From an uncultured Candidatus Saccharibacteria bacterium (GTDB lineage Bacteria > Patescibacteriota > Minisyncoccia > Phycocordibacterales > Phycocordibacteraceae), in the NCBI GenBank assembly GCA_964349555.1, contig CAYGGK010000001.1:120330-184329 (forward strand): 64,000 nucleotides of DNA, written 5' to 3'. Shown here in pieces: positions 6,233 through 48,033 of the stretch. How positions within the stretch are numbered: position 1 is the stretch's first letter; every line of letters begins with the position of its first letter. Below the pieces are notes generated by a model that worked only from the letters and a program-made list of their open reading frames with translations, did no database searches and had not been told where the DNA came from. A program made the translations under genes and the position numbers.

Positions 6233-8011
6233 ATGCGAGCGCAGTTCCGTTTCCGTATCCGCCTCATTCTTGCGGTCGTTATTTTTGTCGCGCTCTGTAT
6301 CCTTGTGAGACTGTATTTTGTTCAAATTGTGAATGGAGAAGAATACGCGCAGAAGGCCGATCGTCAATTCGCCTCCGGAAGCGGGCGACTCTTTGATCGT
6401 GGGACGATTTATTTCACTCGGAAGGATGGTTCGTTAATCTCCGCGGCGACGCTCTCCAGCGGCTTCCTCGTCGCCATCAATCCGCAAACGCTCACTGATC
6501 CAGAGTCCGCGTACGCCGCCATAACGGCCGTCGCTTCCTCAACGCTCTCACACAAGGCGTTTCTCGCCGCCGCCGCGAAGAAGTCGCAGGTATATATAGA
6601 AGTCGCCCATCGTCTCTCTGACGCTGAAGGACGCGCGCTTGCGACCAAGGAGATTCCGGGAGTACATGTGTTGCGTGAGCGCTGGAGGACGTACCCCGGC
6701 CTCTCTCTCGCCTCGCAGTCTATCGGTATCGTCTCCTACGGCTCCGGCGATATTCTTGCGGGACGAACAGGTCTTGAAGCGATGTATGACGACACGCTCG
6801 CTCGCTCCGGCGACTCGCTGTATAAGAATTTCTTCTCAGAGCTTTTTTCCAATGTCGGGAATATACTGGTTTCTACAAAAGAGGTTAGAGAGGGCGATAT
6901 CATAACGACTATAGAGCCGGAAGTGCAGACGCACCTTGCAAACAGTCTCGCAAAACTAAATAAGCGTTATACGAGCAAAGAGTCCGGCGGGATCATTATG
7001 GACCCAGCTACTGGGGCGATTATAGCGATCGTGAGTTACCCGAGCTACGACGGCAACGACCTTAAGAGTGTTGACCCAGCGAGGCTCGGCAATCCTCTCG
7101 TAGAGCACGTGTACGAATTCGGTTCTATCATGAAGCCTCTCACGATGACTGCGGCGTTTGACGCCGGAGTCATCACTCCGCGGACGACCTATAACGATAC
7201 GGGCTGTATTACGGTAAATACGAGAAAGGTCTGCAACTGGGACCTCAAAGCGCGCGGTGTTATACCAGTAGAGCAGATTCTTCTGAAGTCGCTGAACGTC
7301 GGGGCGTCGTGGATGGCGGCCGAGCTGGGGCAAGAAAGGTTTCGCGCATACTTCGTTAAACTTTTTGGACAAAAGACGGGCATTGATATGCCGAACGAGA
7401 CAGGGGCCCTTCTTGGGAATCTCTCCAAGCCACAGCAGATCGGGTATGCTACTGCCTCGTTCGGACAGGGAATCGCGCTCACACCCGTGCAAATGATTCG
7501 AGCTCTCGGAGCCATAGCCAACAAGGGGGAGATGGTCCAGCCGCACTTGGTAAGCGCGATACGCCTTGATTCCGGCATAGAGCGAAAACTGGACTGGAAT
7601 GAAAAAGTTCCTGTTTTTTCTACGACGTCCACGCGCGAGACCATCGAGATAATGGGGAAGTTAAATGACGAGATCCTCTCTGAGGGAAAAGCAAAGATTC
7701 CGACTATGTCGGTGGCGGTGAAGACGGGAACGGCGCAACTCACCACGCCTGGGGGTGGCTATTATACCGACCGTTTCTTCCACTCATTTGTCGGCTTTTT
7801 CCCTTCGTACAATGCGCGCTTCATTATCCTGCTCTACACGAATGACCCGCAGGGCGTGCAGTACGCGTCGGAGACGCTTACCGCGACGTTCCTTGATCTT
7901 GTACGCTTTCTAATTGATTATTATGCCGTGCCGCCCGATCGTGGATTCGATGAACTCACCACAGGTGGATTCGACGAACTCACCACAGGCGGTCTTCCTT
8001 CTGAAATATGA
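6233..8011 (+). CDS. ftsI: Penicillin-binding protein FtsI-type transpeptidase
   Basis: 592 aa with SxxK (SIMKP) and KTG (VKTGTAQ) motifs. It sits in the dcw cluster. The C-terminus ends with a GFDELTTG x2 tandem repeat. Confidence 0.8.
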   Translation: MRAQFRFRIRLILAVVIFVALCILVRLYFVQIVNGEEYAQKADRQFASGSGRLFDRGTIYFTRKDGSLISAATLSSGFLVAINPQTLTDPESAYAAITAVASSTLSHKAFLAAAAKKSQVYIEVAHRLSDAEGRALATKEIPGVHVLRERWRTYPGLSLASQSIGIVSYGSGDILAGRTGLEAMYDDTLARSGDSLYKNFFSELFSNVGNILVSTKEVREGDIITTIEPEVQTHLANSLAKLNKRYTSKESGGIIMDPATGAIIAIVSYPSYDGNDLKSVDPARLGNPLVEHVYEFGSIMKPLTMTAAFDAGVITPRTTYNDTGCITVNTRKVCNWDLKARGVIPVEQILLKSLNVGASWMAAELGQERFRAYFVKLFGQKTGIDMPNETGALLGNLSKPQQIGYATASFGQGIALTPVQMIRALGAIANKGEMVQPHLVSAIRLDSGIERKLDWNEKVPVFSTTSTRETIEIMGKLNDEILSEGKAKIPTMSVAVKTGTAQLTTPGGGYYTDRFFHSFVGFFPSYNARFIILLYTNDPQGVQYASETLTATFLDLVRFLIDYYAVPPDRGFDELTTGGFDELTTGGLPSEI

Positions 8012-9312
8012 AAAATATTCTAAAATTAATTGTTACCGGCATTCTTGGGCTCGTCGCGCGAGCGGTGATACGTCGATATGAGCCGCGCATCGTTATGGTG
8101 AGCGGCTCGGTCGGGAAGACCTCTACAAAGGATGCGGTCGCGGCGGTGCTCTCTACCCGTTTTTTCGTACGCAAGAGCGAAAAGAGTTTTAACAGTGAGT
8201 GGGGGGTCCCCTTTACCATTCTCGGAGTAAAAAATCCGTGGCACAATCCGCTCGCGTGGGGTTCAATTATAAAACGTTCCTTCACGCTCCTTTTTCTGCC
8301 GAACCACTATCCGAACATGCTGGTGCTCGAGGTGGGCGCGGATAAGCGTGGCGACCTCTCTCGCATACTGCGCATCGCGACGCCCCACGCGGTCGTGATA
8401 ACGCGCCTCCCTGAGATACCGGTGCATGTTGAAGCGTATACGTCGCCTGAGGAGGTGCGGGAAGAAGAATTTTCTCCCGCATACGCCTTGCCGCCTGCCG
8501 CGCCCCTTATTATTCCGGCAGATGACCCATACGCAAGAAACAATGCCGCGCGCATCCCCGCGCGCGTTATGTCATACGGTGTCGAGAGCGATGCAGACGT
8601 GCGAGTAAGCGGCGTTGATTTTTATGAGAGCGAAGGAAAAGTCGCCGGGATGCAAGCGAGAGTGCGTGTAGGTGAAGAAGAGGGGGACATCATCGCGAAC
8701 AATTCTGTCGGCATAACACAGCTCCTGCCGATCGCGGCCGCCCTTGCCGTCGCGCAGGCTCTCGCGATACCTCTCGACGAAGCACTTACTGCATTAAAGA
8801 GCTACGAACCGCCGCCCGGTCGCGGGCGTCTTCTCAGAGGGAAGAACGGCTCAATCATCATTGACGATTCTTATAACTCTTCACCTGCCGCGGCTGAAGA
8901 AGCGCTCGCGACCCTAAAGACGTTCCCGAGGGCGAAACGCCCCTCCGCCGCCGAGGCTACGAAGGGCAGGCGCATCGCGGTGCTTGGCGACATGCTGGAA
9001 TTGGGGCGTTATTCGGTAACCGAGCACGAGCGCATAGGAGTGCTCGCGGATGAGTCGGCTGATTTGGTTGTTGCAGTCGGCATCCGCGCGAAGACATTTG
9101 CCGGGGCGTTTAAAAAGTCTGAAGGTATGCTGTTTGATAGTTCACGCTCCGCCGCGCTTGCTCTCCCGTCTCTCATTCGTGAGGGCGACGTCATTCTTGT
9201 AAAAGGTTCCCAGTCCGTCCGCACCGAACGCATCGTTGAAGCCCTTCTCGCGAATCCCTCTGATGCCTCCCTCCTCGTTCGCCAAGAACCCGAATGGAAA
9301 CGGAGGTTATAA
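8008..9312 (+). CDS. murF: UDP-N-acetylmuramoyl-tripeptide--D-alanyl-D-alanine ligase
   Basis: Mur ligase P-loop VMVSGSVGKTSTKD. It follows ftsI. Its last ~27 codons are repeated twice downstream. Confidence 0.8.
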   Translation: MKNILKLIVTGILGLVARAVIRRYEPRIVMVSGSVGKTSTKDAVAAVLSTRFFVRKSEKSFNSEWGVPFTILGVKNPWHNPLAWGSIIKRSFTLLFLPNHYPNMLVLEVGADKRGDLSRILRIATPHAVVITRLPEIPVHVEAYTSPEEVREEEFSPAYALPPAAPLIIPADDPYARNNAARIPARVMSYGVESDADVRVSGVDFYESEGKVAGMQARVRVGEEEGDIIANNSVGITQLLPIAAALAVAQALAIPLDEALTALKSYEPPPGRGRLLRGKNGSIIIDDSYNSSPAAAEEALATLKTFPRAKRPSAAEATKGRRIAVLGDMLELGRYSVTEHERIGVLADESADLVVAVGIRAKTFAGAFKKSEGMLFDSSRSAALALPSLIREGDVILVKGSQSVRTERIVEALLANPSDASLLVRQEPEWKRRL

Positions 9313-9349
9313 GTCCGCGTCTCTGTGCTTGCCCGCCCGCCCAGTGCAC

Positions 9350-9392
9350 GCACAACTCAGCCCCGCCGTTTTAGGAGACATTGTAAAACGGC
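9350..9392. terminator. Hairpin between convergent murF and SET gene
   Basis: agccccgccgtttta…taaaacggcggggct forms a ~15-bp stem. Confidence 0.5.
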
Positions 9393-9411
9393 GGGGCTGG
9401 CTCCCTACGCT

Positions 9412-9813
9412 CTATGACTTACGCTTTATGCCCCGCTTTTTTAAATCTTTCTCGGCTTCAAACTCTAAATAATTTTGTGTTAGTTCCTCGCCCTTCTTTA
9501 TATCTCGTGCCGCAACTAGGTGCGCTTCGGTAAAGTTTTTGTCCTGCGTTACGATCGCCTCGTAGGAGTGGTTGATAAAGTGCGTAACATCAAAATCAAC
9601 GTGCCACTTTTGGCTTGGTTCGTCAAAAAATCCCCAATACTGTATTTCGCGCCTTTCCTTTTCGTCGAGTGAATCAAACTGTTCTGGAGTTAGGTTCACA
9701 TCAAGAAGCGGACTTTGGGTGTAGATGAGTGTCCCTGCCGGTATATTTTCGTCAGCGAACATGCCAACGCCGTGATGCTCTGATTTATCCAGTTTGTACT
9801 TGATGTGTATCAT
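9412..9813 (-). CDS. SET-domain protein (putative protein lysine methyltransferase)
   Basis: GVGMFA…IPAGTLI, an NHS(Y) pseudo-knot region (FINHSYEA) and an ELTQNY post-SET-like motif. Start taken at MIHIKYK. Confidence 0.55.
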   Translation of the reverse strand: MIHIKYKLDKSEHHGVGMFADENIPAGTLIYTQSPLLDVNLTPEQFDSLDEKERREIQYWGFFDEPSQKWHVDFDVTHFINHSYEAIVTQDKNFTEAHLVAARDIKKGEELTQNYLEFEAEKDLKKRGIKRKS

Positions 9814-9817
9814 ACTG

Positions 9818-10405
9818 CTATTTTCTAGTTTGTTTGCGCCACACGAGCATTCCGACAAAAGCGAGGTTTGCGAGAACGAGCGACGCTGGATAGAGCGCGG
9901 TTGTCCAAGTAAAACTCTCAAGCGCAAACAAACTGACGGCGAACTTCAAGCCGGAAAGCCCGTATGTCCAGCCATTCTCTGTTTCGGGGTTAAAAAATGC
10001 TTTGCGGAATGTCGGCACAAAAGCAACGGCATCAATAATCGTGATGATTATAACCGACCAGAGTGGATTGCCGGTGAAATACCAAATCGGGACAGTGAAC
10101 AGGGCGCTTGTAAAAAATATCCAGTCGTTTTTCGTTATAAATACCCGAGATGACGCTCCAAGGCCGACAGCCGCAAAACCGAAACTGCAAAGCGCGGTAA
10201 CGCCCGTAACCCACGCACCCGCGCCGCCGCCTTCGGTTATTTGCGCGACGAACGCTATTGCGGTCAAAAGTCCCCAGACGAACCAGCTGAATGCGTGCGG
10301 TTTGACCTTGCCTTGCAAAATCCCGCGCACATAAAACACATAACCGAACAGACCGAGCGCGACGGCTATGCCGCCTAATATTTCTTGCGTAGTGAATATA
10401 TCCAC
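9818..10405 (-). CDS. Hypothetical polytopic membrane protein
   Basis: Five to six hydrophobic helices, with a GTG start. It sits 4 nt upstream of the SET gene. Confidence 0.45.
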   Translation of the reverse strand: MDIFTTQEILGGIAVALGLFGYVFYVRGILQGKVKPHAFSWFVWGLLTAIAFVAQITEGGGAGAWVTGVTALCSFGFAAVGLGASSRVFITKNDWIFFTSALFTVPIWYFTGNPLWSVIIITIIDAVAFVPTFRKAFFNPETENGWTYGLSGLKFAVSLFALESFTWTTALYPASLVLANLAFVGMLVWRKQTRK

Positions 10406-10429
10406 AACTTCATTTTAGCAGTCTTCTTA

Positions 10430-10531
10430 ACCGATTTGTACTGGCGACACATCGTTGAGGCGCTCCTTGCCAACCCCTCCGACGCGTCCCTCCTCGTTCG
10501 CCAAGAACGCGAGTGGAAACGCAAGGGGTGA
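10430..10531 (+). repeat. Copy B of the murF 3' coding terminus
   Basis: In frame it encodes …DLYWRHIVEALLANPSDASLLVRQEREWKRKG*. It is about 80% identical to murF 9231-9312 and about 95% identical to copy C. Confidence 0.85.
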
Positions 10532-10616
10532 GGACTCCTAACCTACGCGGGAACGGCTCACATGGGAAGAAATGAGCCGTTCAGTGCAAATACTGAAAGG
10601 TACGGAGCGGGCTCCC

Positions 10617-11132
10617 TTATGAGAAACTTATAGCGGTTTTTATCTTTCCAACCAACTCCTCCACGCTCATATTGCTTGTATCAATAAGAACTGAACCGAG
10701 CCGCTCTTTTTTTAGTGCATCGGCCTTTTCCCACATCTCACCTACCCGCTCACGCGTAAGAAGACTTCCGGGCCGGTAGCCGCGTTCGTCCGCTCGCTTT
10801 TGCACGGTGTATTTATCGGCAAACAACAGAAATTCATATACATCGGCACCATGCGCTCGTCCGGCTTCAATCAGTGAATCAACCGTCTCTGATTGTGATA
10901 TTGCTTTGTCGATAATGACGTCCTGTCCCAATTTCAAGTGATGTCCGACGGTTTCGGCCGCTTTCTGGTATGAAATCTGAAGGCTCTCCGCTCGTCGTTC
11001 TTTGTAGTCCGGCACCGATCTTCGAATCTCATCAATATCGAGAAGCACAGAGTTCGGCATGTCCGCATGTAAAAGCTTTGAAATTGTCGATTTTCCTACT
11101 CCGGGCGGGCCATTAAGGATTATGAGTTTCAT
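10617..11132 (-). CDS. P-loop (AAA-type) small-molecule kinase-like protein
   Basis: Walker A ILNGPPGVGKST. At 171 aa it is in the size range of shikimate/gluconate-kinase-like or zeta-like NTPases. Confidence 0.5.
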   Translation of the reverse strand: MKLIILNGPPGVGKSTISKLLHADMPNSVLLDIDEIRRSVPDYKERRAESLQISYQKAAETVGHHLKLGQDVIIDKAISQSETVDSLIEAGRAHGADVYEFLLFADKYTVQKRADERGYRPGSLLTRERVGEMWEKADALKKERLGSVLIDTSNMSVEELVGKIKTAISFS

Positions 11133-11212
11133 AACGCATTATTCCGGCTTAAAGGCCTTTTTTCTTTCTGATACAAGGGATTTACGAGCGCGTAAATCTT
11201 TATTACTCATAT

Positions 11213-11620
11213 TCATTTCGGCGCCGTCTTGAACTGCGGCCAGTGGTCACAGATATCATAGTACGCACCCTTATCCTTCGTGAAAATGTGTTGCGCCGAT
11301 TTTATTCTAGCTTTCTCATCAAGTAGCCCGAGCAAAACGTAAACACGTGCATAGCCTTTTCTATCCCAAGTTATGGACGCCCCGCAGTTGCCGCAGAAGG
11401 TGCGAGTCGTGTTAGAGGATGATTTATACGACAGCAGTTTTTTCGTTCGGTTTATCTTGAACGAATCGCGAAGTGCGCCGACGAACGCGCCGTACATGCC
11501 GTAGTTCTTGCGGCACTGCGAACAGTGGCAAAACCACACGTCATCGAGCGAGCCGGTAAACGAAAATTTTATCGCGCCGCAGCCGCAGGAACCGCGATGC
11601 GTTTTTACCGTTGTCGTCAT
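11213..11620 (-). CDS. GFA/CENP-V family zinc-binding protein
   Basis: Cys clusters GSCGCG, CHCSQCRK and CGNCG. Start taken at MTTTVKTHRG. Confidence 0.6.
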   Translation of the reverse strand: MTTTVKTHRGSCGCGAIKFSFTGSLDDVWFCHCSQCRKNYGMYGAFVGALRDSFKINRTKKLLSYKSSSNTTRTFCGNCGASITWDRKGYARVYVLLGLLDEKARIKSAQHIFTKDKGAYYDICDHWPQFKTAPK

Positions 11621-11645
11621 GTCTTGAGTATAGCGGATTGCCATC

Positions 11646-11746
11646 CCGATTTGTACTGGCGACACATCGTTGAGGCGCTCCTTGCCAACCCATCCGACGC
11701 CTCGCTCCTCGTTCGCCAAGAACGCGAGTGGAAACGCAGATTATAA
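11646..11746 (+). repeat. Copy C of the murF 3' coding terminus
   Basis: Encodes …DLYWRHIVEALLANPSDASLLVRQEREWKRRL*. Confidence 0.85.
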
Positions 11747-12322
11747 ATCCATCTTTTTCTCGTTGAGCGTATCACGCCAGAGAGTAAGGGCCTCTTGCAT
11801 CTCAGTATCCTCAGGATAAACGGAAAGATATTCTTCCATTAGGGGGATTGCCTTATCTAGCTGGTTAAGCTGGCTATATGCAGATGCGGCAAGTAGAGCA
11901 ATCGCTTTGTCGCTAGGGAAGAATGCATACGCAGATTTAAACTCGTCAGCTGCTTCTTGATATTTTCCAACTTTGTACGCTGCTTGCGCGTTCTGCAGTT
12001 GTTTCTTTGCATGAATCAACGGCCGATTCTTTGGGTCGAGAGATGCGAAAAGACCTGAATCTGTTTTTGTCTGCACCGTGCGACTTGGTATAGCGGCGAA
12101 TGAGCCCGGCTTTTGAACAGCCACAAACTTCTTTTTACTGGAAGAGTTGTAAGACACTGCCGAAATACCAGTGCCCGGAATACCGACACTGGTATATGTT
12201 CCACGACTGTTTACACCAACTCGAGCGCCACGTACCCCGGCACTCAAGCCAAGACCCCCTTTACTCACATTGAGCTTCAATCCGGGAAGAATCTTAAATG
12301 ATTTGCGAAAACGGAAAGCCAT
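11741..12322 (-). CDS. DUF4236-like N-terminus with C-terminal TPR repeats
   Basis: MAFRFRKSFKILPGLKLNVSKGGLGLS motif, followed by TPR-like helices. Confidence 0.5.
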   Translation of the reverse strand: MAFRFRKSFKILPGLKLNVSKGGLGLSAGVRGARVGVNSRGTYTSVGIPGTGISAVSYNSSSKKKFVAVQKPGSFAAIPSRTVQTKTDSGLFASLDPKNRPLIHAKKQLQNAQAAYKVGKYQEAADEFKSAYAFFPSDKAIALLAASAYSQLNQLDKAIPLMEEYLSVYPEDTEMQEALTLWRDTLNEKKMDL

Positions 12323-12358
12323 CACTATATATTGTACCAAGAAGCAACGGAAACGCTG

Positions 12359-12430
12359 TGACCCTACGGAGAATCGAACTCCGGTTCCATCCTTGAGAAG
12401 GATGTGTCCTAACCGTTAGACGATAGGGCC
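12359..12430 (-). tRNA. tRNA-Glu (anticodon CUC)
   Basis: Folded by hand into a 72-nt cloverleaf. Acceptor GGCCCTA/TAGGGTC, anticodon loop TTCTCAA, T-loop TTCGATT. Confidence 0.7.
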
Positions 12431-12443
12431 TCACTGTTTTATA

Positions 12444-12472
12444 ACAAAAAAACACCGGTGTTGCCACCGGTG
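12444..12472 (-). terminator. Rho-independent terminator
   Basis: caccggtg-ttgc-caccggtg hairpin. On the - strand it is followed by a T-run, and an 11-G run adjoins it. Confidence 0.55.
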
Positions 12473-12485
12473 GGGGGGGGGGAGT

Positions 12486-12686
12486 TCAATCATCTTTTTC
12501 TCCCATTATTCTGTTTTGCAAACTGCGTGCCTGCACGTTGCGCCGCTCCTGTTCTTCTGCCTTCTCCAGAGCATCTCTTTTGCTCTTCGCTACTCTGAGC
12601 CTTTCTAGCGCTTCCTGAAGATCTGTCTGGCCGTGCTCCCCTTGGTTTGACTTGTCCATAGGACCTTTCTCCATATTGGTGGACAT
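12486..12686 (-). CDS. Small hypothetical coiled-coil protein
   Basis: 66-aa ORF with charged helices and a terminator downstream. No strong RBS. Confidence 0.25.
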   Translation of the reverse strand: MSTNMEKGPMDKSNQGEHGQTDLQEALERLRVAKSKRDALEKAEEQERRNVQARSLQNRIMGEKDD

Positions 12687-22644: not shown

Positions 22645-24342
22645 TCAAAGATTCTCTTTATTTTCTTTTCTTCCAAGTTCTTTAATAATTATTTCCACTA
22701 AGTCCGGGTGGTAGTGTTCGGCCTCATGTCCTCTTGACTTCTGTTTTTCAAACCACCCCGGGTTAGACACCCTATATTTCTCCGCAAAAGATATTATTGT
22801 AGAACCGTCTGCCTTAACAGCACGCCTAAGACTCTTCGCACTTTCCCACCCATCTTTCTTTCCCGGCGTTTCGTTAAAATGTTCTACCATTTTTTCCACT
22901 AAGTCCGGGTGGTAGTGCTCGGCTTTTTGGCTTCCTGACTTCTGTATTTCAAACCACTCCGGGTTAGATACCCTGTATCTCTCCGCAAAAAATTTTATGT
23001 TACGATGAGCTGCCTTAACAACACGCATAAGACCACTTGCGCTTTCCCACCCCTCTTTCTTTCCCGGCGTTTCGTTAAAATGTTCTACTATTTCTTTCAC
23101 TAAATCCGGGTGGTAGTGTTCGGCCTCATGTCCTCTTGACTTCTGTTTTTCAAACCACTCCGGGTTAGATACCCTGTATCTCTCCGCAAAAGATTTTATT
23201 TTACGAAGGTCTGCCTTAACAATAGGTATAAGACTCTTCGCACTTTCCCACCCATCTTTCTTTCCCGGCGTTTCGTTAAAATGTTCTACCATTTTTTCCA
23301 CTAAGTCCGGGTGGTAGTGTTCGGCTTCTACACTTCCCGACTTCTGTCTTTCAAACCACCCCGGGTTAGACACCCTATATTTCTCCGCAAAAGATATTAT
23401 TGTATGACCACTTGCCTTAAAAATATGCCTAAGACTTCTCGAACTTTCCCACCCCTCTTTCTTTTTTGGTACCTCTTTTATGTGTTCAAAATCTGATTTT
23501 GGGACGTTTGGTTTTTTATCGTCATTAACATCGAAATTTTCGGTTAAATACGTAAGCATACGTTCACGCCATTTGCTGTTTTGTCGTAGCACGCTACCAA
23601 TGGCAGGGTCTTCTTCTATATATTTCTTGTATTCGTCTTTGTCTGTCGTATCCAATCTCTCTATACTGATTACTTTTTGTAAAATTTTGTCTCTATCAAA
23701 TATAAAACTCGCGTTACCTTCTTCTTCGCAGATATACACCACTCGGTTTAACTCGGGTATTTCTACCCTGAAGTACGGATAACGCCGCATCATATTATCT
23801 GTAGTTTCTCCCTTTATAATTTTAATATCATCCTCTGTGGTGTCCTCGGCAGGGTCGTTTATGTATATATGAAGGTCATTTTGAAGGATATACATAAGAG
23901 TAGTCAATCTTGGTATGAGGTTCTTCTCTTCTAATCCCTTACTGCTTCCGGGGACGATGGGGTTATTTTCTTTGGAGGGGGGAACAAATACTTCTTTTGA
24001 TACGCCAGTCATTCTCGCTATGTTCCTTTCTAAGTCGTATATAGATTCTTTTCTTTTTGAAATAGCGTCTAGAGTATCGGTTACTGACTGCAATCCTAGA
24101 TACCCCAGAGCGGCATCTTCCAGTTCTTTTCCTATATAAGTCGTTCCGGGATTTTTTTCTTTATATTCAGAAGTTGCTTTAGACACAATGAGAATCAACG
24201 TGTCCACTGCCTCATCGTAGAAAGTATGTACGTTATCTGGGTTTATACTTGTGTGTAGGAGGTTGTCATACTCAACCTTAAGCGAGTTTTTTAAAGATTC
24301 AGGACGGGCTCTGTATTCTTTACCTGATAAACGACCCTCCAT
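22645..24342 (-). CDS. Hypothetical protein with four C-terminal 67-aa tandem repeats
   Basis: 201-bp DNA repeats across about 22690-23493 encode K(K/E)GWES…SFAEKYRVSNP(G/E)WFEKQKS…AEHYHPDLVEKMVEHFNETPGK four times. The ~300-aa N-terminal domain is unique. The gene is AT-rich compared with its neighbours. Confidence 0.6.
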   Translation of the reverse strand: MEGRLSGKEYRARPESLKNSLKVEYDNLLHTSINPDNVHTFYDEAVDTLILIVSKATSEYKEKNPGTTYIGKELEDAALGYLGLQSVTDTLDAISKRKESIYDLERNIARMTGVSKEVFVPPSKENNPIVPGSSKGLEEKNLIPRLTTLMYILQNDLHIYINDPAEDTTEDDIKIIKGETTDNMMRRYPYFRVEIPELNRVVYICEEEGNASFIFDRDKILQKVISIERLDTTDKDEYKKYIEEDPAIGSVLRQNSKWRERMLTYLTENFDVNDDKKPNVPKSDFEHIKEVPKKKEGWESSRSLRHIFKASGHTIISFAEKYRVSNPGWFERQKSGSVEAEHYHPDLVEKMVEHFNETPGKKDGWESAKSLIPIVKADLRKIKSFAERYRVSNPEWFEKQKSRGHEAEHYHPDLVKEIVEHFNETPGKKEGWESASGLMRVVKAAHRNIKFFAERYRVSNPEWFEIQKSGSQKAEHYHPDLVEKMVEHFNETPGKKDGWESAKSLRRAVKADGSTIISFAEKYRVSNPGWFEKQKSRGHEAEHYHPDLVEIIIKELGRKENKENL

Positions 24343-26200: not shown

Positions 26201-27166
26201 TCAGTTATTAAGCTCGCTTCCCCCGTGGAATTTTTCGTGTATATCGCGGAGTCGTTTATTCGTCACGTGCGTGTAGATCTGGGTTGTCGCGACGTTTTTA
26301 TGTCCGAGCAATTCTTGCACACTGCGCAGGTCTGCGCCGTGGGAGAGAAGGTCGGTCGCGTAGCTGTGCCGGAGCGTGTGGGGAGTGACCTTTTTTGAGA
26401 GGCCCGCGAGTACCGCGCATCGGGATATCATTTTCTGAATAGAGCGCGGGGACAAGCGTTTTGCGTCCGCGTCATCCTTGTGTCGGAAGTTTATAAAAAG
26501 GGGAGTATGCACGTCGCGCCTCGCCACGAGATACGTTCGGAGCCATTCGGCCGCCCGAGGTGAGATAAAAATGGTTCTGACATGATTCCCTTTACCAACG
26601 ATAGATAATTCGTAGGTCCGTGTATGACTTTTGTCGTTAAGAAACGAAACTTGGTCCGTATCAAGCGCGACAAGCTCGCTGATGCGCATGCCAGACGAGA
26701 AAAAAAGTTCCATAATGGCCCGATCGCGCAAGCCGTTTAAAGTTGCTACGTCAGGAACTTTCATCATCTTCTCCACATCGTGTACGTCAAGGAAGGAAAG
26801 AGTCTCTTCTGTCTTTTGTTTTGCCAATTTAATTTTTGAAGAAGGAAGAGACTCTATGTCGCGATCGGCGAGATAGTTGAGAAACGCGCGCAGAGCTATA
26901 AGGTAATAGTTCTGGGACTTTTTGCCGAGGTATCCGCCGGAAGGTGTCGTATATTTGCGTGCGAGGTAGAGACGATAATCCCATATATGCTTTGGCGTGA
27001 GTTCGTGAGGCAAGAGTCCCTCGTCTCCATTTTTCTTCAGCCAGCCCATAAAAAGTTGTAAGTACTGCTTGTAATTTTTTTGCGTATTACTCGACAGTCC
27101 TTTTTCAACCTCGCAGTAATCGAGGAAGGGAAGGAGGTGGTTAGAGAGCGATTGCTTGTCGCGCAT
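26201..27166 (-). CDS. Tyrosine site-specific recombinase (XerC/XerD-like)
   Basis: R…HTLRHSYATDLL…LGH…TQIYTHV catalytic box. Confidence 0.8.
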   Translation of the reverse strand: MRDKQSLSNHLLPFLDYCEVEKGLSSNTQKNYKQYLQLFMGWLKKNGDEGLLPHELTPKHIWDYRLYLARKYTTPSGGYLGKKSQNYYLIALRAFLNYLADRDIESLPSSKIKLAKQKTEETLSFLDVHDVEKMMKVPDVATLNGLRDRAIMELFFSSGMRISELVALDTDQVSFLNDKSHTRTYELSIVGKGNHVRTIFISPRAAEWLRTYLVARRDVHTPLFINFRHKDDADAKRLSPRSIQKMISRCAVLAGLSKKVTPHTLRHSYATDLLSHGADLRSVQELLGHKNVATTQIYTHVTNKRLRDIHEKFHGGSELNN

Positions 27167-40650: not shown

Positions 40651-41280
40651 TCATCCTATCATTTTTAGTCGATATTCGTCTATCCAACGAATGATTTGCT
40701 CGAAGAATTTCTTATCCGAATAGCGAATGTGCACAAGCCCGTGGACCATACGCGGCCCGCGCCAACTATGCGTCATGGAGGCTTTCTTGATGTAAGGTTT
40801 TGTAAAGTGATTGATTGACAACTTGAGAAGTTTGCACCAAAAGCGCTTCAGATTTTGGATACTTTGTCCCTCGTATGCGTACAGATGCAGTCGAATTCTC
40901 TTTTGATCTATCCCACATACTTCAGAAAGGAATTTCCAAAAAATAAGTACCATGTCTGGATCTGAATTTGCGAAGTCAACCGTCCCTCCTCTTGCTTTAT
41001 AGCCTTCAGCCCAGTACAACATAATCGCCGCTATCTTGAGTTGTTCCTGCTCACTCGTTAACTTCTGTTTCAATTCATATGAAAGAGGCTTCGACTCAAA
41101 TCGAATGCGGTTGGTCTCCTGCGCGGAACGACGAGACACTTTGAGTTTGCGAAGAGTGTAATAGGCCGCGTGAATACTAATACCAAAATGATTGGCCATT
41201 TGTTGTGCACTTAGTCCGTTTCGATATAAGCGAGCCGCTTCTTTTTGCTGTTCCAGTGGAAGCGCCATTTTGACAGACAT
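40651..41280 (-). CDS. HTH-domain protein with LAGLIDADG-like region (possible free-standing homing endonuclease)
   Basis: N-terminal HTH (LSAQQMANHFGISIHAAYYTLRK). A LAGLIDADG-like IMLYWAEGYK…VDFANSD sits mid-protein. AT-rich. Confidence 0.35.
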   Translation of the reverse strand: MSVKMALPLEQQKEAARLYRNGLSAQQMANHFGISIHAAYYTLRKLKVSRRSAQETNRIRFESKPLSYELKQKLTSEQEQLKIAAIMLYWAEGYKARGGTVDFANSDPDMVLIFWKFLSEVCGIDQKRIRLHLYAYEGQSIQNLKRFWCKLLKLSINHFTKPYIKKASMTHSWRGPRMVHGLVHIRYSDKKFFEQIIRWIDEYRLKMIG

Positions 41281-41341
41281 ACTAGAATTATCTCAAATAG
41301 GAGTTGAGAGTCAAACGGACTTATACACAGAAATGTTTACT

Positions 41342-41397
41342 TTAGTACAAGAATGAGGACGCCTTGTTTGCCCTTGCGCACGAGCGCGTAGCCGCCG
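41342..41397 (-). repeat. Diverged duplicate of the tyrS 3' coding terminus
   Basis: Read on the - strand it encodes VGGYALVRKGKQGVLILVLK*. This is identical to the TyrRS C-terminus at the protein level and different at the nucleotide level. Confidence 0.8.
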
Positions 41398-41497
41398 ACG
41401 CAATGCGCCCACTATAGCGGATGCGGCACTTTTTTCAAAATCAAGAACCATGTAAGTTCATAAATGTCTTTCCTCAGTTCCCAAAACCTTCCCATGG

Positions 41498-41541
41498 AAC
41501 TATCCCCAATTTTACGCTATAGCGTTATTTATGTGCTGGTG
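41498..41541. repeat. Palindromic element (core TACGCTATAGCGT)
   Basis: tccccaattttacgctatagcgttatttatgtgctggtg. The first 22 nt are the exact reverse complement of 62964-62985. Confidence 0.7.
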
Positions 41542-41563
41542 CCGACTGGTAGGATTCATAAAT

Positions 41564-42145
41564 ATGAAGAAGGTCGAGGCTGAGGCGAAGGTGAAGCGAC
41601 GGAGACGTGATTTGCACAATATCATTTTAGCAACGATTGCTGTCGCCGGGATTCTTACTGTCGCAGCCGTAGCGCCAAACGCAATGCGCCTCCTTAAAAC
41701 GACCGGCATAGACGCCCGTCTTCGGTATAAAACAAAACGGGTGCTTGGGAGATTAAAGCAGAAAGGTGAAATCGAGTTCGTTGAGAAGGATGGCAAGACC
41801 CTTGTACGGCTTACCGAGCGTGGCGAACAAGCGCTCGCGCTACATGCCGAGCGGCTAAGGCTTGCGGGCGAAAGGCCCAAGAAATGGGATCAACGCTACC
41901 GGCTGGTGATGTTTGATGTCCCAGAAAAGCGTAAGCGGACTCGAGATCTCTTGCGTCGAGAAATGAGAGAGGTCGGTTTCCTTCGTATACAGGACAGCGC
42001 GTGGCTCTACCCTTACGACTGTGAAGAGTTTGTTGCGCTTTTGAAAGCGGACTTGCATATCGGGAAGGATGTACTCTACGCCGTCATTGAATCAATTGAA
42101 AACGATGCGTGGATCCGAAAACATTTTAATCTTCGTACAGATTAA
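41564..42145 (+). CDS. Winged-helix + PaaX_C/Cas2-fold domain protein
   Basis: N-terminal TM helix, a wHTH (…LKQKGEIEFVEKDGKTLVRLTERGEQAL…) and a C-terminal YRLVMFDVPEK…GFLRIQDSAWLY β-α-β core. Confidence 0.5.
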   Translation: MKKVEAEAKVKRRRRDLHNIILATIAVAGILTVAAVAPNAMRLLKTTGIDARLRYKTKRVLGRLKQKGEIEFVEKDGKTLVRLTERGEQALALHAERLRLAGERPKKWDQRYRLVMFDVPEKRKRTRDLLRREMREVGFLRIQDSAWLYPYDCEEFVALLKADLHIGKDVLYAVIESIENDAWIRKHFNLRTD

Positions 42146-42165
42146 GACTAACCGCTTCCCGACAT

Positions 42166-42203
42166 CAGCACAATAATTACGCTATAGCGTAATTATTGTG
42201 CTG
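42166..42203. repeat. 38-bp perfect palindrome
   Basis: cagcacaataattacgctatagcgtaattattgtgctg. It shares a TACGCTATAGCGTA core with 41498-41541 and 62958-62985. Confidence 0.8.
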
Positions 42204-42264
42204 GTAGGGGAGGTAAATTTTGGGCGGTTGATTGGGCGGTCGGTATGTGGGTACTTATTATTTT

Positions 42265-43518
42265 TTATTTCAAAACGAGGATGAGGACGCCTTGTTTGCC
42301 CTTGCGCACGAGCGCATAGCCGCCGGAAAGATCGCCGGGGTAAATTTTTTGGTCGGGATTCTCAATCGTCTGGTCTGAAAGAGTAATGCCCTTTCCTTCT
42401 ATCAGCCGGCGAGCGGCGCTTTTAGAAGTTGCAAGGCCACCAACGACAAGCGCGTCAGCGAGCGGGGAGCCGTCAGCGACGTCTTTCTTTGTGAGAACTA
42501 CGGAAGGCGCTTCGGCGAGTGCCACCGCGAGCGCTTCGCGGGAGAGCCCGCTAAACGGCGTGTCGCCGAAGAGGGCGTCAGTCGCGGCCGCGACCTGCGC
42601 GGTCGCGGCGGGCCCGTGAACTATCTCGGTCACAAGTCGAGCGAGCGTCTCCTGGGCTTGCCTCTCGCCTGGGTTCCGTTGATGGAGCTCCATAAGGGCG
42701 CCAATTTCAATAAGCGACAGGAAGGTATACACCTTCAGATAATTTTCAATACCCTCGTCCGGAAGGTTTATCCAAAATTGGTAGAAACGGAAAGGGGACG
42801 TCTTCTTCGCGTCAAGCCAAACGGCGTTCCCTTCGCTCTTGCCGAACTTTTTCCCGCTCGCATCGGTGACGAGTGGAAATGTGAACGCAAATACTTCTTT
42901 CCCGGCACGTTTTCGGATTAAATCGACACCAGAGAGGATGTTTGTCCACTGGTCGGAACCGCCGATCTGAAGGTCCACGCCGTACTTTTCGTTAAGCGTC
43001 AGGTAATCATAACCTTGCAAAAGCGCGTAGGAGAACTCGGTAAAGGAGATGCTCTCGTCTGGTGTGTCGAGACGTTTCTTTATAGTCTCGCGTTTGATGA
43101 GGTCGTTGACTGTGAAATGTTTACCGATATCGCGTAGGAACGGCAATAGCTTAACCTTGGAGAGCCACTCCGCATTGTCTACCATCTTGAAAGGAATCTT
43201 GCCGAGGATCTTTTTCAGCTGTATTTGAAGCGCGCGGGTATTGGCGACGACCGTTTTTTCATCCAGCATCACCCGCTCCCCCACCTCTTTAGGGTCGCCG
43301 ATCATGCCGGTACCACCGCCCACAAGAAAGACAAGTTTATTACCAGTGTCGCCGAGTCGCCTCATGAGGAGCATGAAAACGAGGTGTCCTATGTGGGCTG
43401 AATCGGCCGTTGGATCAATACCAATATATATAGTCCTTGGCGCGGCTAGTATCTTTTCTAAATCAGTAGACGAGTGTACTGCCAGCCCGCGCGCCTTCAG
43501 CTCTTCAGCTAGAGTCAT
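42265..43518 (-). CDS. tyrS: Tyrosyl-tRNA synthetase
   Basis: GIDPTADSAHIGH (HIGH), KFGKS and a C-terminal S4 domain. Confidence 0.85.
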   Translation of the reverse strand: MTLAEELKARGLAVHSSTDLEKILAAPRTIYIGIDPTADSAHIGHLVFMLLMRRLGDTGNKLVFLVGGGTGMIGDPKEVGERVMLDEKTVVANTRALQIQLKKILGKIPFKMVDNAEWLSKVKLLPFLRDIGKHFTVNDLIKRETIKKRLDTPDESISFTEFSYALLQGYDYLTLNEKYGVDLQIGGSDQWTNILSGVDLIRKRAGKEVFAFTFPLVTDASGKKFGKSEGNAVWLDAKKTSPFRFYQFWINLPDEGIENYLKVYTFLSLIEIGALMELHQRNPGERQAQETLARLVTEIVHGPAATAQVAAATDALFGDTPFSGLSREALAVALAEAPSVVLTKKDVADGSPLADALVVGGLATSKSAARRLIEGKGITLSDQTIENPDQKIYPGDLSGGYALVRKGKQGVLILVLK

Positions 43519-47022: not shown

Positions 47023-47856
47023 TCATCTTGCGATAAGAAGGGCGGTTTCGAGTGAGGTCACTTCAACGATCTTGGATGCTAGTGGGGTCTTAAGGTCCCT
47101 CGCGACGGCCTCATAAGCATCCCAGAACTCGTACACGTTGAATAAGTCGCCGTGCTTCTCCGCCCGATCTTTTACTAGGGTGATGAGGCGAACTTTTCTT
47201 TTAGCAACCAAAACAGCACTGGCGATAAAGATCTTATAGGAAGTAACGCGGTAGTCGCGGTCGGTTCGGAACGCGAGCTCAGAGAACTGGTGCCTCCACT
47301 TCTCACTTTCTTTAAGCAACATGCAATACTGACCGCGTTGGCCCTCGAGCAAGGAACGGATTTTTGCGTCCCTTGGCGGGTTGAGGGAGAGATCCCTGAA
47401 GATGGACAACTCCTCCTTGCGGCGCCTCTCCGCGTCCTGCCTTTCGCGTTTTCCCCGCTCCTGTTTCTTGGTAAGAATTGCTCTTTTCGCCTCACCTGAA
47501 GAAGTGAACCTCAGGTCCTTTTCAAAAAACTTGAGGAGCTTATCGAAGAGCGATTGCAGATTGCTCGTTGCAACAGTTGAATCAGTGGAACTGCCGACCA
47601 AGTACTGTTTGTTGCTTACTTCATTTTCAACGTAGTATTTGACCACCGCATCATAGAGGGACCTCGCCCTCTCAGTACTTAGGTGATACGTGTTGTCTAT
47701 ACCAGTAGCGGTGAACTTCCCCCTCCAGGCAATGTTCCCGGGAAAAAGTTTCTTGAGCTGAGCGATATCACTGACCGATAGACCCGCGGATACCTTAACG
47801 CGAGTCCCTGCCCGAATTCCTTCCGGCCGAACTTTAAAGCAGAACTGTACTTCCAT
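47023..47856 (-). CDS. Hypothetical protein
   Basis: 277 aa, Lys/Arg-rich in the middle, no recognisable domain. Its promoter, leader and first 11 codons are duplicated at 48476-48590. Confidence 0.45.
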   Translation of the reverse strand: MEVQFCFKVRPEGIRAGTRVKVSAGLSVSDIAQLKKLFPGNIAWRGKFTATGIDNTYHLSTERARSLYDAVVKYYVENEVSNKQYLVGSSTDSTVATSNLQSLFDKLLKFFEKDLRFTSSGEAKRAILTKKQERGKRERQDAERRRKEELSIFRDLSLNPPRDAKIRSLLEGQRGQYCMLLKESEKWRHQFSELAFRTDRDYRVTSYKIFIASAVLVAKRKVRLITLVKDRAEKHGDLFNVYEFWDAYEAVARDLKTPLASKIVEVTSLETALLIAR

Positions 47857-47937: not shown

Positions 47938-48033
47938 TAAAAACTTGACTTGTCTGTAGTAAAGACAGGCGCACATACCCGAGGGTTGCGCGCCTGTGTT
48001 GGTTGCTGGATTTCAGACTAGGCCAGACCTTGA

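Follow-up and report, generated by a model that had tools for sequence, protein, structure and literature searches.

Accessory cassettes stacked behind diverged copies of the murF 3' end in a Kaiserbacteria bacterium

We analyzed a 64,000-nt stretch of DNA (the window) from a tiny-genome Kaiserbacteria bacterium, in which the 3' end of the essential gene murF is the target of insertion. The order mraZ-rsmH-ftsL-like-PBP-murF is conserved among relatives. An earlier, sequence-only reading had described three co-oriented, in-frame, homologous murF 3' ends here, and alignment confirmed them in place: the working terminus (copy A) and two displaced termini (copies B and C), at spacings of 1219 and 1215 nt that make the two intervening cassettes nearly equal in size (Table 1). 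All three encode the peptide IVEALLANPSDASLLVRQE(P/R)EWKR(RL/KG)* and are open through to the stop; the stop of copy C adjoins that of the convergent DUF4236 gene (TTATAA). Homology of A to B and C starts abruptly after C(G/A)C, at ATCGTTGA. The 19-mer CTCCTCGTTCGCCAAGAAC, common to the three copies, occurs three times in the window against about 0.01 expected, and none of 100 shuffles reached three occurrences. A decayed terminus end, remnant D, directly adjoins tRNA-Glu at the tRNA 3' end; compared with random windows, its local alignment has a p of about 0.005.

Table 1 Features of the murF locus and of two further loci in the window
Feature	Position	Strand	Description	Basis
murF	8008-9312	+	434 aa; host gene with target 3' end	Pfam Mur_ligase_M and Mur_ligase_C; synteny
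Copy A	9232-9312	+	last 26 codons and stop of working murF	alignment
T1	9313-9411		hairpin/terminator region between copy A and SET stop; 16-bp stem 9358-9399	self-complementarity
SET-domain protein	9412-9813	-	cassette 1	Pfam SET, E 5e-14
Membrane protein	9818-10405	-	cassette 1; 195 aa	
Right-end block, cassette 1	10431-10450	+	20 nt, CCGATTTGTACTGGCGACAC; not murF-derived	
Copy B	10451-10531	+	displaced murF terminus, frame intact, ends ...WKRKG*	alignment
T2	10532-10616		hairpin region after copy B; conserved inverted-repeat element 10552-10601	
AAA_33/zeta-toxin-like kinase	10617-11132	-	cassette 2	Pfam
GFA-family protein	11213-11623	-	cassette 2	Pfam
Right-end block, cassette 2	11646-11665	+	identical CCGATTTGTACTGGCGACAC	
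Copy C	11666-11746	+	displaced murF terminus, frame intact, ends ...WKRRL*	
DUF4236-TPR protein	11741-12322	-	cassette 3; 193 aa from ATG at 12322	Pfam DUF4236, E 1e-23
Remnant D	12337-12356	+	decayed murF terminus end (CCAAGAA-GC-AACGGAAACGC)	local alignment
tRNA-Glu(CUC)	12358-12430	-	ancestral downstream neighbour of murF	ARAGORN and Rfam
tyrS instance	41340-42324	-	terminus 42268-42324, repeat 41340-41396	
dnaK instance	48408-48712	-	terminus 48647-48712, repeat 48408-48470	

Copies A to C and remnant D bound three minus-strand cassettes. Pfam bore out the gene content proposed earlier for the first two (a membrane protein plus a SET-domain protein, and a P-loop kinase plus a GFA protein), and the third encodes the DUF4236-TPR protein. 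All are clean, intact operons that lack pseudogene debris from a larger decayed element. The claim that no integrase remains was also correct, with none in or beside the cassettes; no recombinase was found in any cassette examined, and the sole recombinase in the window is Xer-like. For the membrane protein we found more than 1000 homologues in CPR bacteria, with identities of up to 91%; it recurs at about 80% nucleotide and 85-91% amino acid identity in three different hot spots of relatives: after murF (L127), beside tmRNA (L126) and beside tRNA-Leu (L124). The kinase ORF shares 88% nucleotide identity with that of L122, which occupies the corresponding murF-tRNA-Glu-yqeY hot spot, and 82% with that of L123. 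Between genomes the cargo genes, at about 80-88% nucleotide identity, are thus closer than the core genes: MurF shows no more than 74% amino acid identity to that of any other genome.

The right ends of cassettes 1 and 2 carry the same 20-nt block, 25 nt from the membrane-protein start codon and 22 nt from the GFA start codon, respectively. On the minus strand, the cassette 1 block would occupy the -35 position relative to a putative TAAAAT box 6 nt before the GTG, and in cassette 2 a candidate TATACT box lies 6 nt before the GFA ATG. A consensus promoter scan detected nothing at either block, and the block had no match elsewhere in the JGI metagenomes or in the fetched loci. DNA homologous to T1 (79-93%) immediately follows the kinase gene in L122 and L123 and occurs twice within the serine-recombinase island of L017. 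The T2 element is 96% identical to L027 8077-8126 and 93% to L062 12081-12121, both downstream of murF; an Rfam search of T2 returned no family.

Over the first 24 codons, nucleotide identity is 83% for A/B, 82% for A/C and 96% for B/C. The synonymous to non-synonymous differences of these pairs are 12:4, 13:1 and 5:3, respectively. The earlier observation that the copies differ mainly at synonymous positions therefore held on counting, and the dN/dS check agreed (murF A/C: pS 0.67, pN 0.017, dN/dS far below 1). For an in-place duplicate whose stranded copy drifts, the neutral expectation is that about 60% of differences are non-synonymous. Because the differences are almost only synonymous, the copies must have evolved as functional murF termini; termini that diverged as working ends in different lineages would have been joined by horizontal transfer, not duplicated in place. 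A, B and C thus appear to have been diverged alleles already when they were brought together, and at least one copy in each pair was probably imported from a related Kaiserbacteria lineage. B and C are 97% identical over 93 nt, including the 20 nt not from murF. A core of 19-22 nt is identical in A, B and C, and around it about two-thirds of codons differ (corrected p about 0.02-0.04, our own estimate from the alignment).

We compared the interval with that of 80 related genomes, 52 of which had both flanks (murF and yqeY). tRNA-Glu lies between the two flanks in 52/52, its distance from the murF stop being less than 100 nt in at least 21, and the murF-yqeY gap ranges from 445 to 8599 nt, supporting the view of the site as a variable insertion hot spot. 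The relatives have one murF end copy each, and two (L006 and L017) carry large serine recombinases against tRNA-Glu in this hot spot. The window's cassettes and DUF4236 gene are absent at the loci of all 80. Of the murF-DUF4236-tRNA-Glu order that had been suggested for checking in relatives, the tRNA-Glu part stood (52/52) and the DUF4236 part did not (0/80): the DUF4236 gene forms a further cassette, the third, delimited by the fourth remnant, and is not an ancestral neighbour of murF. L020 holds an intact equivalent of remnant D (RQEKKWKQKL*), whose TGA overlaps the tRNA-Glu 3' end. The two remnants share the same left breakpoint, between CGC and CAAGA, at a MurF identity between the genomes of only 70%, which suggests a preferred site. 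As no close relative of this organism, empty site or population variant turned up, we infer the direction and order of the insertion events.

A search for other genes whose ends recur downstream, as the sequence-only reading had advised, found tyrS and dnaK in the same window. The tyrS copies are identical at 19/19 amino acids, with 7 synonymous and 0 non-synonymous differences, and enclose an opposite-strand PaaX/Cas2-like gene (41531-42145) and a perfect 38-nt palindrome (42166-42203); ORF 40651-41280 had no endonuclease match. The dnaK insert has no cargo: it consists of a terminator and a truncated duplicate (48471-48589) of the start of a neighbouring gene, namely the leader plus 12 codons of ORF 47023-47856, joined at a CCGGAGG microhomology imperfectly shared by both parent sequences. 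It looks like a random-ended DNA fragment and not a defined mobile cassette. In relatives, we found the scar at rmuC, lysK, a lysS-like gene and a DAO gene. No single attachment site accounts for the scar, contrary to the one-site claim: it occurs at seven or more host genes, with breakpoints that vary and junctions unrelated in sequence. A systematic tail-copy scan yielded nine real conserved genes, all with copies downstream on the same strand, against 0-1 for same-strand-upstream and opposite-strand-downstream copies; four inverted upstream matches were repeats in LSR islands, not gene-tail scars.

Some stranded rmuC copies are closer to working ends of other genomes than to that of their own. 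The stranded rmuC copy of L043 is 61% identical to its own working end and 86% to the ends of other genomes, and that of L052 is 86% identical to its own working end and 93% to L024. At lysK in L021, the displaced copy is the clade-typical LysK end and the working gene end is atypical, which is the expectation for a replacement terminus. The flanking repeats of L042 (50 nt, 100% identical) and L021 (52 nt, 92%) differ by few, neutral-like changes, and both loci have a new short gene end.

The best reading of the whole array, which we hold with about even confidence, is that imported DNA inserted by homology-anchored insertion-duplication. The murF-tRNA-Glu interval contains three or more stacked accessory cassettes, each of which would have entered by recombination within the last 30-80 nt or so of murF. 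The donor fragment would most simply comprise the end of murF, its terminator and neighbouring genes. DNA taken up would recombine homologously in the conserved gene, which acts as an anchor, and the far end of the fragment would join illegitimately at a microhomology that precedes the resident stop by a few dozen bases. At each event murF would keep one terminus copy and another would be stranded downstream of the insert, remnant D being the oldest and now decayed. The essential gene would be left intact and gain a new terminator, and the inserted genes would bring their own, apparently leaderless, promoters. Units already flanked by termini may then spread by ordinary homologous recombination, and the same process may have acted at tyrS and dnaK here and at rmuC, lysK and others in relatives. 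We favour this reading because the genome encodes ComEC and one junction shows microhomology. The same scar at other essential genes and in relatives argues for a general route of gene gain, which looks to be integrase-free in this Kaiserbacteria lineage. Four observations count against insertion-duplication. The identical 20-nt block and breakpoint in B and C, despite unrelated cargo, speak against independent illegitimate joins and need either a second step, in which the block-plus-tail unit was duplicated, or a specific recognition site. The identical 19-22-nt core is what an att core would look like, the breakpoint that remnant D has in common with L020 suggests a preferred site, and large serine recombinases occupy the same hot spot in L006 and L017. 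We know of no demonstration of natural transformation in this lineage.

Those observations lead to the main alternative, which we consider possible but less probable: site-specific elements whose attP contains a recoded murF terminus would have integrated at the murF core, their integrase lost or never present, and would now be CIME-like accreting cassettes, possibly mobilised in trans by a recombinase encoded at another locus. Beyond the core and the B/C right end, the near-equal cassette sizes, the breakpoint shared by remnant D and L020, the T1-like DNA inside the L017 recombinase island and the near-identical repeats of L021 and L042, typical of att identity blocks, fit such elements. There are also precedents in e14 with icd/icdC (PMC13626634) and in CIME accretion (PMC5704250). 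However, the Xer-like protein is the only recombinase in 64 kb and no integrase lies in or near any cassette, at least seven host genes with unrelated junctions would require many distinct integrases, the dnaK insert is truncated and lacks cargo, the cassettes are clean operons, and the right-end block was found nowhere else in the JGI metagenomes or the fetched loci. To our knowledge, serine recombinases do not create 80-nt repeats. The e14/icd-like replacement terminus put forward earlier thus survives in part, in the synonymous, in-frame copies and at L021 lysK, and fails as a single family of site-specific elements.

Unlikely, in our view, is duplication in place, in which some 50-90 nt of the resident murF end would have been copied at every insertion, giving a long target duplication that diverged later. 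The L042 and L021 repeats look exactly like this, the 96% B/C identity with its shared 20 nt of non-murF sequence fits a duplicated target, and such duplications, with no mobility gene involved, have been described in other bacteria (PMC2853133). Set against the neutral expectation, however, the counts for murF A/C (13:1) and tyrS (7:0) give p of about 6e-5 and 0.002 by our own calculation, a neutral copy at pS 0.67 should not keep an open frame, and the stranded rmuC copies of L043 and L052 are closer to the working ends of other genomes. It is very improbable that the repeats are instead a regulatory or structured element for the minus-strand genes (a promoter/UP element or RNA). B and C do lie directly upstream of the first genes of cassettes 1 and 2, with the block at a putative -35 position, but the variation falls at third codon positions and keeps the MurF peptide instead of being compensatory in a helix, Rfam and the promoter scan found nothing at the site, relatives have only one copy, and the same architecture recurs with unrelated sequences at tyrS, dnaK and rmuC. 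Least probable of all, and practically negligible, is collapse or concatenation of strain variants by the metagenome assembler: two contigs terminate within copy B, and a Logan unitig that breaks at 10552 in T2 spans only cassette 2, but of five further contigs from other assemblies that match the window three span copies A to C at 99.8-100% (two at 100%, the third differing only by an indel outside the array), the breaks sit exactly where a 46-nt B/C identity makes a 31-mer non-unique, and murF has only about 9 nt in common with the left junctions of B and C, too short for any k-mer path to have formed them, which rules out a k-mer chimera.

Insertion-duplication resembles, without matching, several known systems. 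Homology-facilitated illegitimate recombination during natural transformation, reportedly described in 2002 by de Vries and Wackernagel and by Prudhomme et al., likewise imports adjacent foreign DNA through a one-sided anchor in a conserved gene and joins the far end at a short GC-rich microhomology, comparable to CCGGAGG at dnaK; classical events, however, usually delete recipient DNA and do not duplicate the anchor end, and we know of no CPR bacterium in which the process has been demonstrated. In Allomyces atp6, Paquin, Laforest and Lang are said to have reported in 1994 a mobile, endonuclease-linked replacement of the C-terminal coding region. There, too, the resident gene has acquired a foreign, recoded C-terminal segment in frame and its native one persists downstream, but that insert requires a homing endonuclease gene and none was detected here.

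The suggestion of an undescribed family of cassettes was too strong, as the array is akin to three described phenomena. Prophage e14 in E. coli icd is a 15-kb element that encodes an integrase, uses a defined att site and leaves the icdC pseudogene (PMC13626634). As here, integration falls inside the 3' end of a coding gene, an alternative terminus completes the gene, a C-terminal fragment is left behind on the far side of the insert, and the differences are largely synonymous or conservative; in contrast, our inserts measure about 1.1 kb, carry no recombinase gene, lie in a stack and are found at many genes. Streptococcal CIMEs (cis-mobilizable elements) accrete at gene 3' ends as decay products of ICEs and IMEs, with cognate integrases in related elements (PMC5704250). 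They share with our locus the tandem arrays built by successive integrations, but we found neither a cognate element nor an integrase, and our cassettes lack decay debris. The third is insertion with long target duplication, described by Nobusato, Furuta and Kobayashi, in which gene units without a mobility gene are flanked by direct repeats of more than 30 bp, whose counterpart in genomes lacking the insert is a single-copy target; the targets often overlap gene 3' ends, the hosts are mostly bacteria competent for DNA uptake, and the described cases are restriction-modification systems with near-identical repeats (PMC2853133). Our units are similarly small and devoid of mobility genes, and L021 and L042 match exactly. 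The difference is that the cargo here is diverse, the events are three to four deep at one gene, and the repeats in the window are deeply diverged at synonymous sites only, which indicates that one copy is an imported allele and not a copy of the target.

The 3' end of murF occurs three times in the window, once as the last codons of the gene itself (copy A) and twice as displaced copies downstream (B and C; see table). As the sequence-only reading had proposed, alignment shows a duplicated 3' coding terminus flanking inserted DNA, with the copies homologous and in frame and the gene intact. A 19-mer common to A, B and C has exactly three occurrences in the 64 kb, against ~0.01 expected, and the core CTCCTCGTTCGCCAAGAAC region is identical across all three for 19-22 nt. 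Copies B and C share 97% identity over 93 nt, and identity falls to 82-83% when either is compared with A; repeat length is 75-93 nt, and the copies are spaced 1219 and 1215 nt apart. The murF homology of the displaced copies starts abruptly between C(G/A)C and ATCGTTGA, preceded by 20 non-murF bases common to B and C (CCGATTTGTACTGGCGACAC). At the murF junction, any microhomology is limited to an imperfect CGA(A)C(G/A)C.

Pfam agreed with the gene content read from the sequence: cassette 1 encodes a SET-domain protein and a 195-aa membrane protein, and cassette 2 an AAA_33/zeta-like kinase and a GFA protein, all on the minus strand. The 35 nt that separate the start of the DUF4236 gene from the tRNA include CCAAGAA-GC-AACGGAAACGC, in which the last part of the murF tail is recognisable in decayed form (copy D; p ~0.005 against random windows). 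The breakpoint lies ~33 nt before the stop in D (~-33) and at -78 in B and C. The related locus L020 holds an intact equivalent of D, 1.2 kb downstream of its working murF end; it encodes RQEKKWKQKL up to the stop, has the same left breakpoint as D, and its TGA overlaps the tRNA-Glu 3' end. The remnant and its equivalent give the array order murF, A, cassette 1, B, cassette 2, C, cassette 3 (DUF4236-TPR), D, tRNA-Glu. The complete triplet recurs, at 99.8-100% identity to the window, in three more contigs that come from other assemblies, and contigs that stop inside the array do so where the 46-nt identity of B and C defeats a 31-mer graph. Since the left junctions share only ~9 nt with murF and three contigs span the array, the triplicated-terminus structure is not an assembly artefact.

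Coordinates of murF termini, repeated gene ends and associated features (L0xx and L1xx are handles for loci or contigs of related or matching genomes; entries without a handle are window positions)
Feature	Locus	Position	Remark
murF	window	8008-9312	Pfam Mur_ligase_M/C
Copy A	window	9232-9312	last 26 murF codons and stop
Copy B	window	10451-10531	same orientation and frame as A
Copy C	window	11666-11746	same orientation and frame as A
Copy D	window	12337-12356	decayed remnant
tyrS	window	42265-43518 (-)	terminus 42268-42324 repeated at 41340-41396, 0.9 kb downstream; 19/19 residues identical
dnaK	window	48641-50533 (-)	terminus 48647-48712 repeated at 48408-48470, ~170 nt downstream
rmuC	L014	13714-15451	terminus repeated once or twice
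rmuC	L052	7436-9196	terminus repeated once or twice
rmuC	L060	13433-14218	terminus repeated once or twice
rmuC	L043	14861-15721	terminus repeated once or twice
rmuC	L020	16705-18172	terminus repeated once or twice
lysK	L021	4896-6000	52-nt repeat, 92% identical, ends 8 nt before stop
Class II lysS-like gene	L042	1285-2743	50-nt repeat, 100% identical, ends 28 nt before stop
DAO gene	L126	6635-8455	11-codon copy beyond DUF305 gene
Large serine recombinase	L006	17309-18841 (+)	Resolvase, Recombinase and Zn_ribbon
Large serine recombinase	L017	11348-12922 (-)	Resolvase, Recombinase and Zn_ribbon
Inverted-repeat element	window	10552-10601	
Inverted-repeat element	L027	7900-8130	
Inverted-repeat element	L062	11893-12121	
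Inverted-repeat element	L010	13364-13484	
Inverted-repeat element	L040	8854-8920	

Public gene calls give the GFA gene (11213-11719, minus strand) 168 aa, or 150 aa, with a start antisense inside copy C. The Pfam GFA domain begins at residue 9 of a 136-aa form whose ATG lies at 11623, and the additional N-terminal residues of the longer calls are probably spurious, a product of the repeat. Upstream, the C-terminus of the PBP gene (6233-8011) contains a 24-nt tandem duplication at 7941-7988 (GTGGATTCGA(T/C)GAACTCACCACAG, twice); contig L084, from another sample, is 24 nt shorter than the window, probably through copy-number variation of this repeat.

We counted synonymous and non-synonymous differences by the Nei-Gojobori method. 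The copies differ mostly at synonymous positions, as first noticed by eye: 13 synonymous to 1 non-synonymous for A/C (pS 0.67, pN 0.017), 12 to 4 for A/B, with the non-synonymous changes at codon 20 and the last two codons, and 5 to 3 for B/C. If a copy had been made in place and its stranded counterpart had drifted neutrally, ~60% of the differences should be non-synonymous (N/(2S+N), observed site counts). The shares seen were 1/14 for A/C and 0/7 for the tyrS pair (calculated p ~6e-5 and 0.002). These shares, and an open frame that a neutral copy would not have kept at the pS of A/C, indicate that the copies diverged while serving as gene ends in different lineages; A and C built up their divergence while both ended murF, and the stranding is recent relative to it. 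None of the 80 sampled relatives comes as close to B and C as A does (maximum 79%), and the other lineage is thus an unsampled relative of this organism. Relatives give independent support. The stranded rmuC copy of locus L043 is 61% identical to its own working end and 86% to the working ends of other genomes, and that of L052 86% to its own versus 93% to another genome. The stranded lysK copy of L021 ends in ...SEAGG, the clade pattern, and the working gene in an atypical ...SEVE, so the native end was displaced there, as the idea of a replacement terminus requires. GC3 (A 0.54, B 0.75, C 0.71, murF body 0.61) did not discriminate as a pointer to the native copy.

The organism is a member of Kaiserbacteria/Paceibacterota, with a best MurF match of 72% among 185,579 species genomes (GTDB) and 74% in a 5.8-billion-protein collection. 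The order murF ... yqeY(-) rmuC(+) rplU(+) is kept in the 52 related loci with both flanks. The expected variability of the integration locus was evident there, the murF-yqeY gap ranging from 445 to 8599 nt with miscellaneous contents. A tRNA-Glu(CUC) is found in every gap, in either orientation, and lies ≤100 nt from the murF stop in at least 21 loci. The DUF4236 gene, previously suggested as the ancestral murF neighbour, is absent from all 80 loci, and the suggestion had to be dropped; at E<1e-4, the only trace of the five cassette proteins of the window in these loci is one distant SET gene. The murF tail is single in each of the 80. Larger gaps carry a restriction-modification (R-M) pair (L009), reverse transcriptases and metabolic genes. 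Those of L006 and L017 hold islands of 7.6-8.6 kb, each with a large serine recombinase gene at its edge that abuts or overlaps tRNA-Glu(CUC) with its 3' end; no murF-tail repeats were found at these recombinases, nor any related full-length element. Variable contents between fixed flanks mark the interval as a lineage-wide insertion hot spot, with DUF4236-TPR as a third cassette.

Cassette-protein clusters at 90% identity had no members outside the same population, and contig L121, reached via the GFA cluster, has the same sequence as the window. The 20-nt block plus tail start gave 0 matches in a JGI metagenome scan; a scan with the 19-nt core returned only three distant murF ends and chance matches, and the single viral match lay by chance inside a high-GC ORF. 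A search for variant junctions among kinase-bearing contigs found only repeat-induced unitig breaks. In locus L062, a fragment like the tRNA-Glu 3' end (TGTGACCCTACCGGGAA...) lies downstream of murF at ~11790-11830; no full tRNA was detected on the examined part of this contig, and the fragment might be a remnant of att type.

At the nucleotide level, the kinase ORF shares 88% identity with a gene of L122, which sits in the same murF-tRNA-Glu-yqeY gap within a 9.5-kb island, and 82% with one of L123. The membrane-protein ORF is ~80% identical (85-91% in amino acids) to genes of L127 (after murF, in opposite orientation), L126 (by tmRNA) and L124 (by tRNA-Leu). This homology ends at the ORF borders, which points to gene-sized modules being reshuffled. 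Homologues of the hairpin region after copy A immediately follow the kinase gene in L122 and L123 and occur at two sites of the L017 island. Downstream of murF, relatives carry a conserved non-coding inverted-repeat element up to ~230 nt long; its 50-nt window piece, in the hairpin region after copy B, matches non-coding DNA that follows murF in L027 at 96% identity, though the MurF proteins are ~69% identical, and a Logan unitig breaks at its edge. Rfam searches of 9000-12600 and of the L027 element returned only tRNA-Glu. A terminator-like hairpin thus accompanies each new gene end, which fits an imported fragment made up of gene end, terminator and neighbours.

For each ORF of 80 aa or more, we then compared the 30 C-terminal residues with 5 kb of same-strand downstream DNA. 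Exactly three genes in the window scored, murF, tyrS and dnaK, so that repeated termini elsewhere, which the sequence-only reading had proposed looking for, do occur. The tyrS pair (41336-42325) has 7 differences, all synonymous, and encloses a PaaX/Cas2-like gene, on the opposite strand, and a 38-nt perfect palindrome (42166-42203). At dnaK (47822-48712), the insert consists of a terminator and a partial gene copy (48471-48589), 82% identical to the leader and the initial 12 codons of ORF 47023-47856 further downstream and fused to the old tail at CCGGAGG, a motif imperfect in both parents; with its truncated gene copy, the insert looks like a random-ended fragment and not a cassette.

Among the relatives (80 loci, 1.22 Mb, 1233 ORFs), the DNA between rmuC repeats encodes a Phd/ParE toxin-antitoxin pair, an IS200-like Y1 transposase and products of no assigned function, and the working rmuC is of a divergent type (43-45% identical) in L020, L019 and L033. 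Inserts at the lysK, lysS-like and DAO genes are mostly on the opposite strand and lack Pfam matches. The scan was directional: at E<=1e-4, 15 ORFs (9 of them real conserved genes) had downstream same-strand copies, against 0 on the opposite strand downstream and 1 on the same strand upstream; a non-CPR control of 158 kb, too small for a background rate, gave 2 dubious matches in spurious high-GC ORFs. Across the scarred genes, the distance of the breakpoint from the stop varies between -28 and ~-100 nt, and the sequences at the junctions show no relation to each other. The terminus scar is general, seven or more host genes carrying it across this genome and its relatives.

Other repeats were seen in the window. 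A motif around the palindrome ACGCTATAGCGT (consensus ...AGCACATAAATNACGCTATAGCGTAAAATTGGGGATAG...) occurs at 41470-41537, 42159-42203 and 62943-63017, inverted around the PaaX-like gene and again after an F420-ligase-like gene (62236-62952), possibly as a promoter/terminator module or a small repeat element. Tandem repeats of ~200 nt, 84-87% identical, occupy 22683-23464 inside ORF 22648-24342 (-), whose 565-aa product has no Pfam match.

The cassettes had been described as lacking an integrase, and Pfam and NCBIfam searches of all cassette ORFs and the neighbouring window were in agreement: no recombinase was found in the cassettes, and the window's single recombinase, an Xer-like tyrosine type (26204-27166), scored far below integron-integrase cut-offs. 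The examined cassette ORFs of relatives contained no recombinase or nuclease families except the Y1 transposase, a family not known to make such repeats. Cassette proteins of 291 aa (L021) and 293 aa (L020), considered as a shared novel recombinase, proved unrelated and had no structural relatives by sequence; ORF 40651-41280, beside the tyrS copy, had no Pfam, NCBIfam or PDB sequence support as a LAGLIDADG homing endonuclease. The window does encode ComEC (Pfam Competence, E 8e-52). Boxes of the -10 type, TAAAAT in cassette 1 and TATACT in cassette 2, lie exactly 6 nt before the first-gene start codons, and ORF 40651-41280 is preceded by TTGACT-16-GATAAT-6-ATG. This spacing suggests that the cassettes carry their own promoters, with leaderless transcripts and the 20-nt block at the -35 position. 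A consensus promoter/terminator scan over the array gave no informative result.

These data establish that inserts lie in the last codons of conserved genes, that at least two termini are kept, that these termini are diverged working alleles, that no recombinase is encoded in cis, that targets are many and that cargo is exchanged between genomes. For the murF locus, we give an even chance to homology-anchored insertion-duplication of imported DNA. DNA from related lineages would be taken up and recombine homologously within the conserved gene; an illegitimate join of the donor's distal end, a few dozen bases before the resident stop codon, would then duplicate the terminus. The dnaK insert, with its CCGGAGG microhomology, is the clearest pointer to such a join, but the block that B and C have in identical form speaks against arbitrary fragment ends.

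Site-specific integration of the att/CIME type at murF is a serious though rather unlikely alternative. It would account for the 20-nt block and breakpoint shared by B and C despite unrelated cargo, the 19-22-nt identical core amid heavy synonymous change, the similar copy spacing, and the breakpoint common to D and the L020 remnant. However, the shared block and breakpoint could also arise if the block-plus-tail unit was the duplicated target of the second insertion, although the three B/C differences within the shared 93 nt are all third-position changes. The conserved core, the identical cassette end, the ~1.2-kb cassette length and the breakpoint common to two distant genomes could also be signatures of a dedicated, integron-like capture system of Kaiserbacteria, which we consider improbable. 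In such a system, the gene for the enzyme would lie outside the cassettes. Essential genes would receive, within their last 10-30 codons, small leaderless cassettes with promoters of their own, and a recoded spare end would act as the recombination site; if the enzyme exists, this would be a new kind of gene-capture platform. Pure in-place duplication has textbook examples, as insertions with long target duplication, in L042 and L021, yet at murF it is very improbable given the low identity of A to B and C and the synonymous bias of the A/C differences.

The gain of accessory genes by CPR/Patescibacteria is poorly understood; their genomes are tiny, mobile elements that can be recognised in them are few, and their lifestyle is obligately dependent. 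The murF locus and its counterparts represent a recurrent, recognisable scar of such gain, in which recoded spare ends are stacked behind essential genes that stay intact, without an element-encoded recombinase. The scar can be dated, intact copies being recent imports and decayed copies old. Scanning the last 30 codons of genes against downstream DNA is easy and could reveal, throughout CPR genomes, the hot spots of horizontal transfer and the lineages that act as donors. It could also flag mis-called ORFs, the 168-aa GFA being one example, and assembly breaks.

Robust and recurrent, the observation is easily used as a gene-gain marker in a poorly understood phylum, and it has close analogues. 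We found no description of a CPR terminus scar in the open-access literature searched. The array had been likened to phage e14 in icd (PMC13626634). The architecture, a duplicated 3' coding terminus with an intact gene, supports this likeness, and the 19-22-nt core would match a crossover core; however, the breakpoints differ, and the integrase and excisionase expected of such an element are not encoded. CIMEs, for which accretion has precedent (PMC5704250), are likewise bounded by att-type repeats and free of integration and transfer genes, and the serine recombinases in the same hot spot abut tRNA-Glu. A cognate integrase, which defines both models, was not found. Integron cassettes would call for IntI, attI, attC hairpins and promoterless genes, whereas no IntI was found here, the repeats are coding-gene ends and the murF cassettes appear to have their own -10 boxes. 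Homology-facilitated illegitimate recombination fits the presence of a DNA-uptake gene; the dnaK junction lies at a microhomology inside a truncated gene copy, and the murF junction is only imperfect. Insertion with long target duplication (PMC2853133), originally described for R-M systems, is defined by inserts of <20 kb without mobility genes between direct repeats of >30 bp that are single-copy in insert-free genomes, and this definition describes the murF array. Both of its repeats derive from the target and are thus near-identical or neutrally diverged; this holds for B versus C (96-97%) and for L021 and L042, but not for A versus B and C. The murF array thus differs in its cargo (SET, membrane protein, kinase, GFA and DUF4236 instead of R-M genes), in its stacking and, above all, in the imported allelic nature of one repeat.
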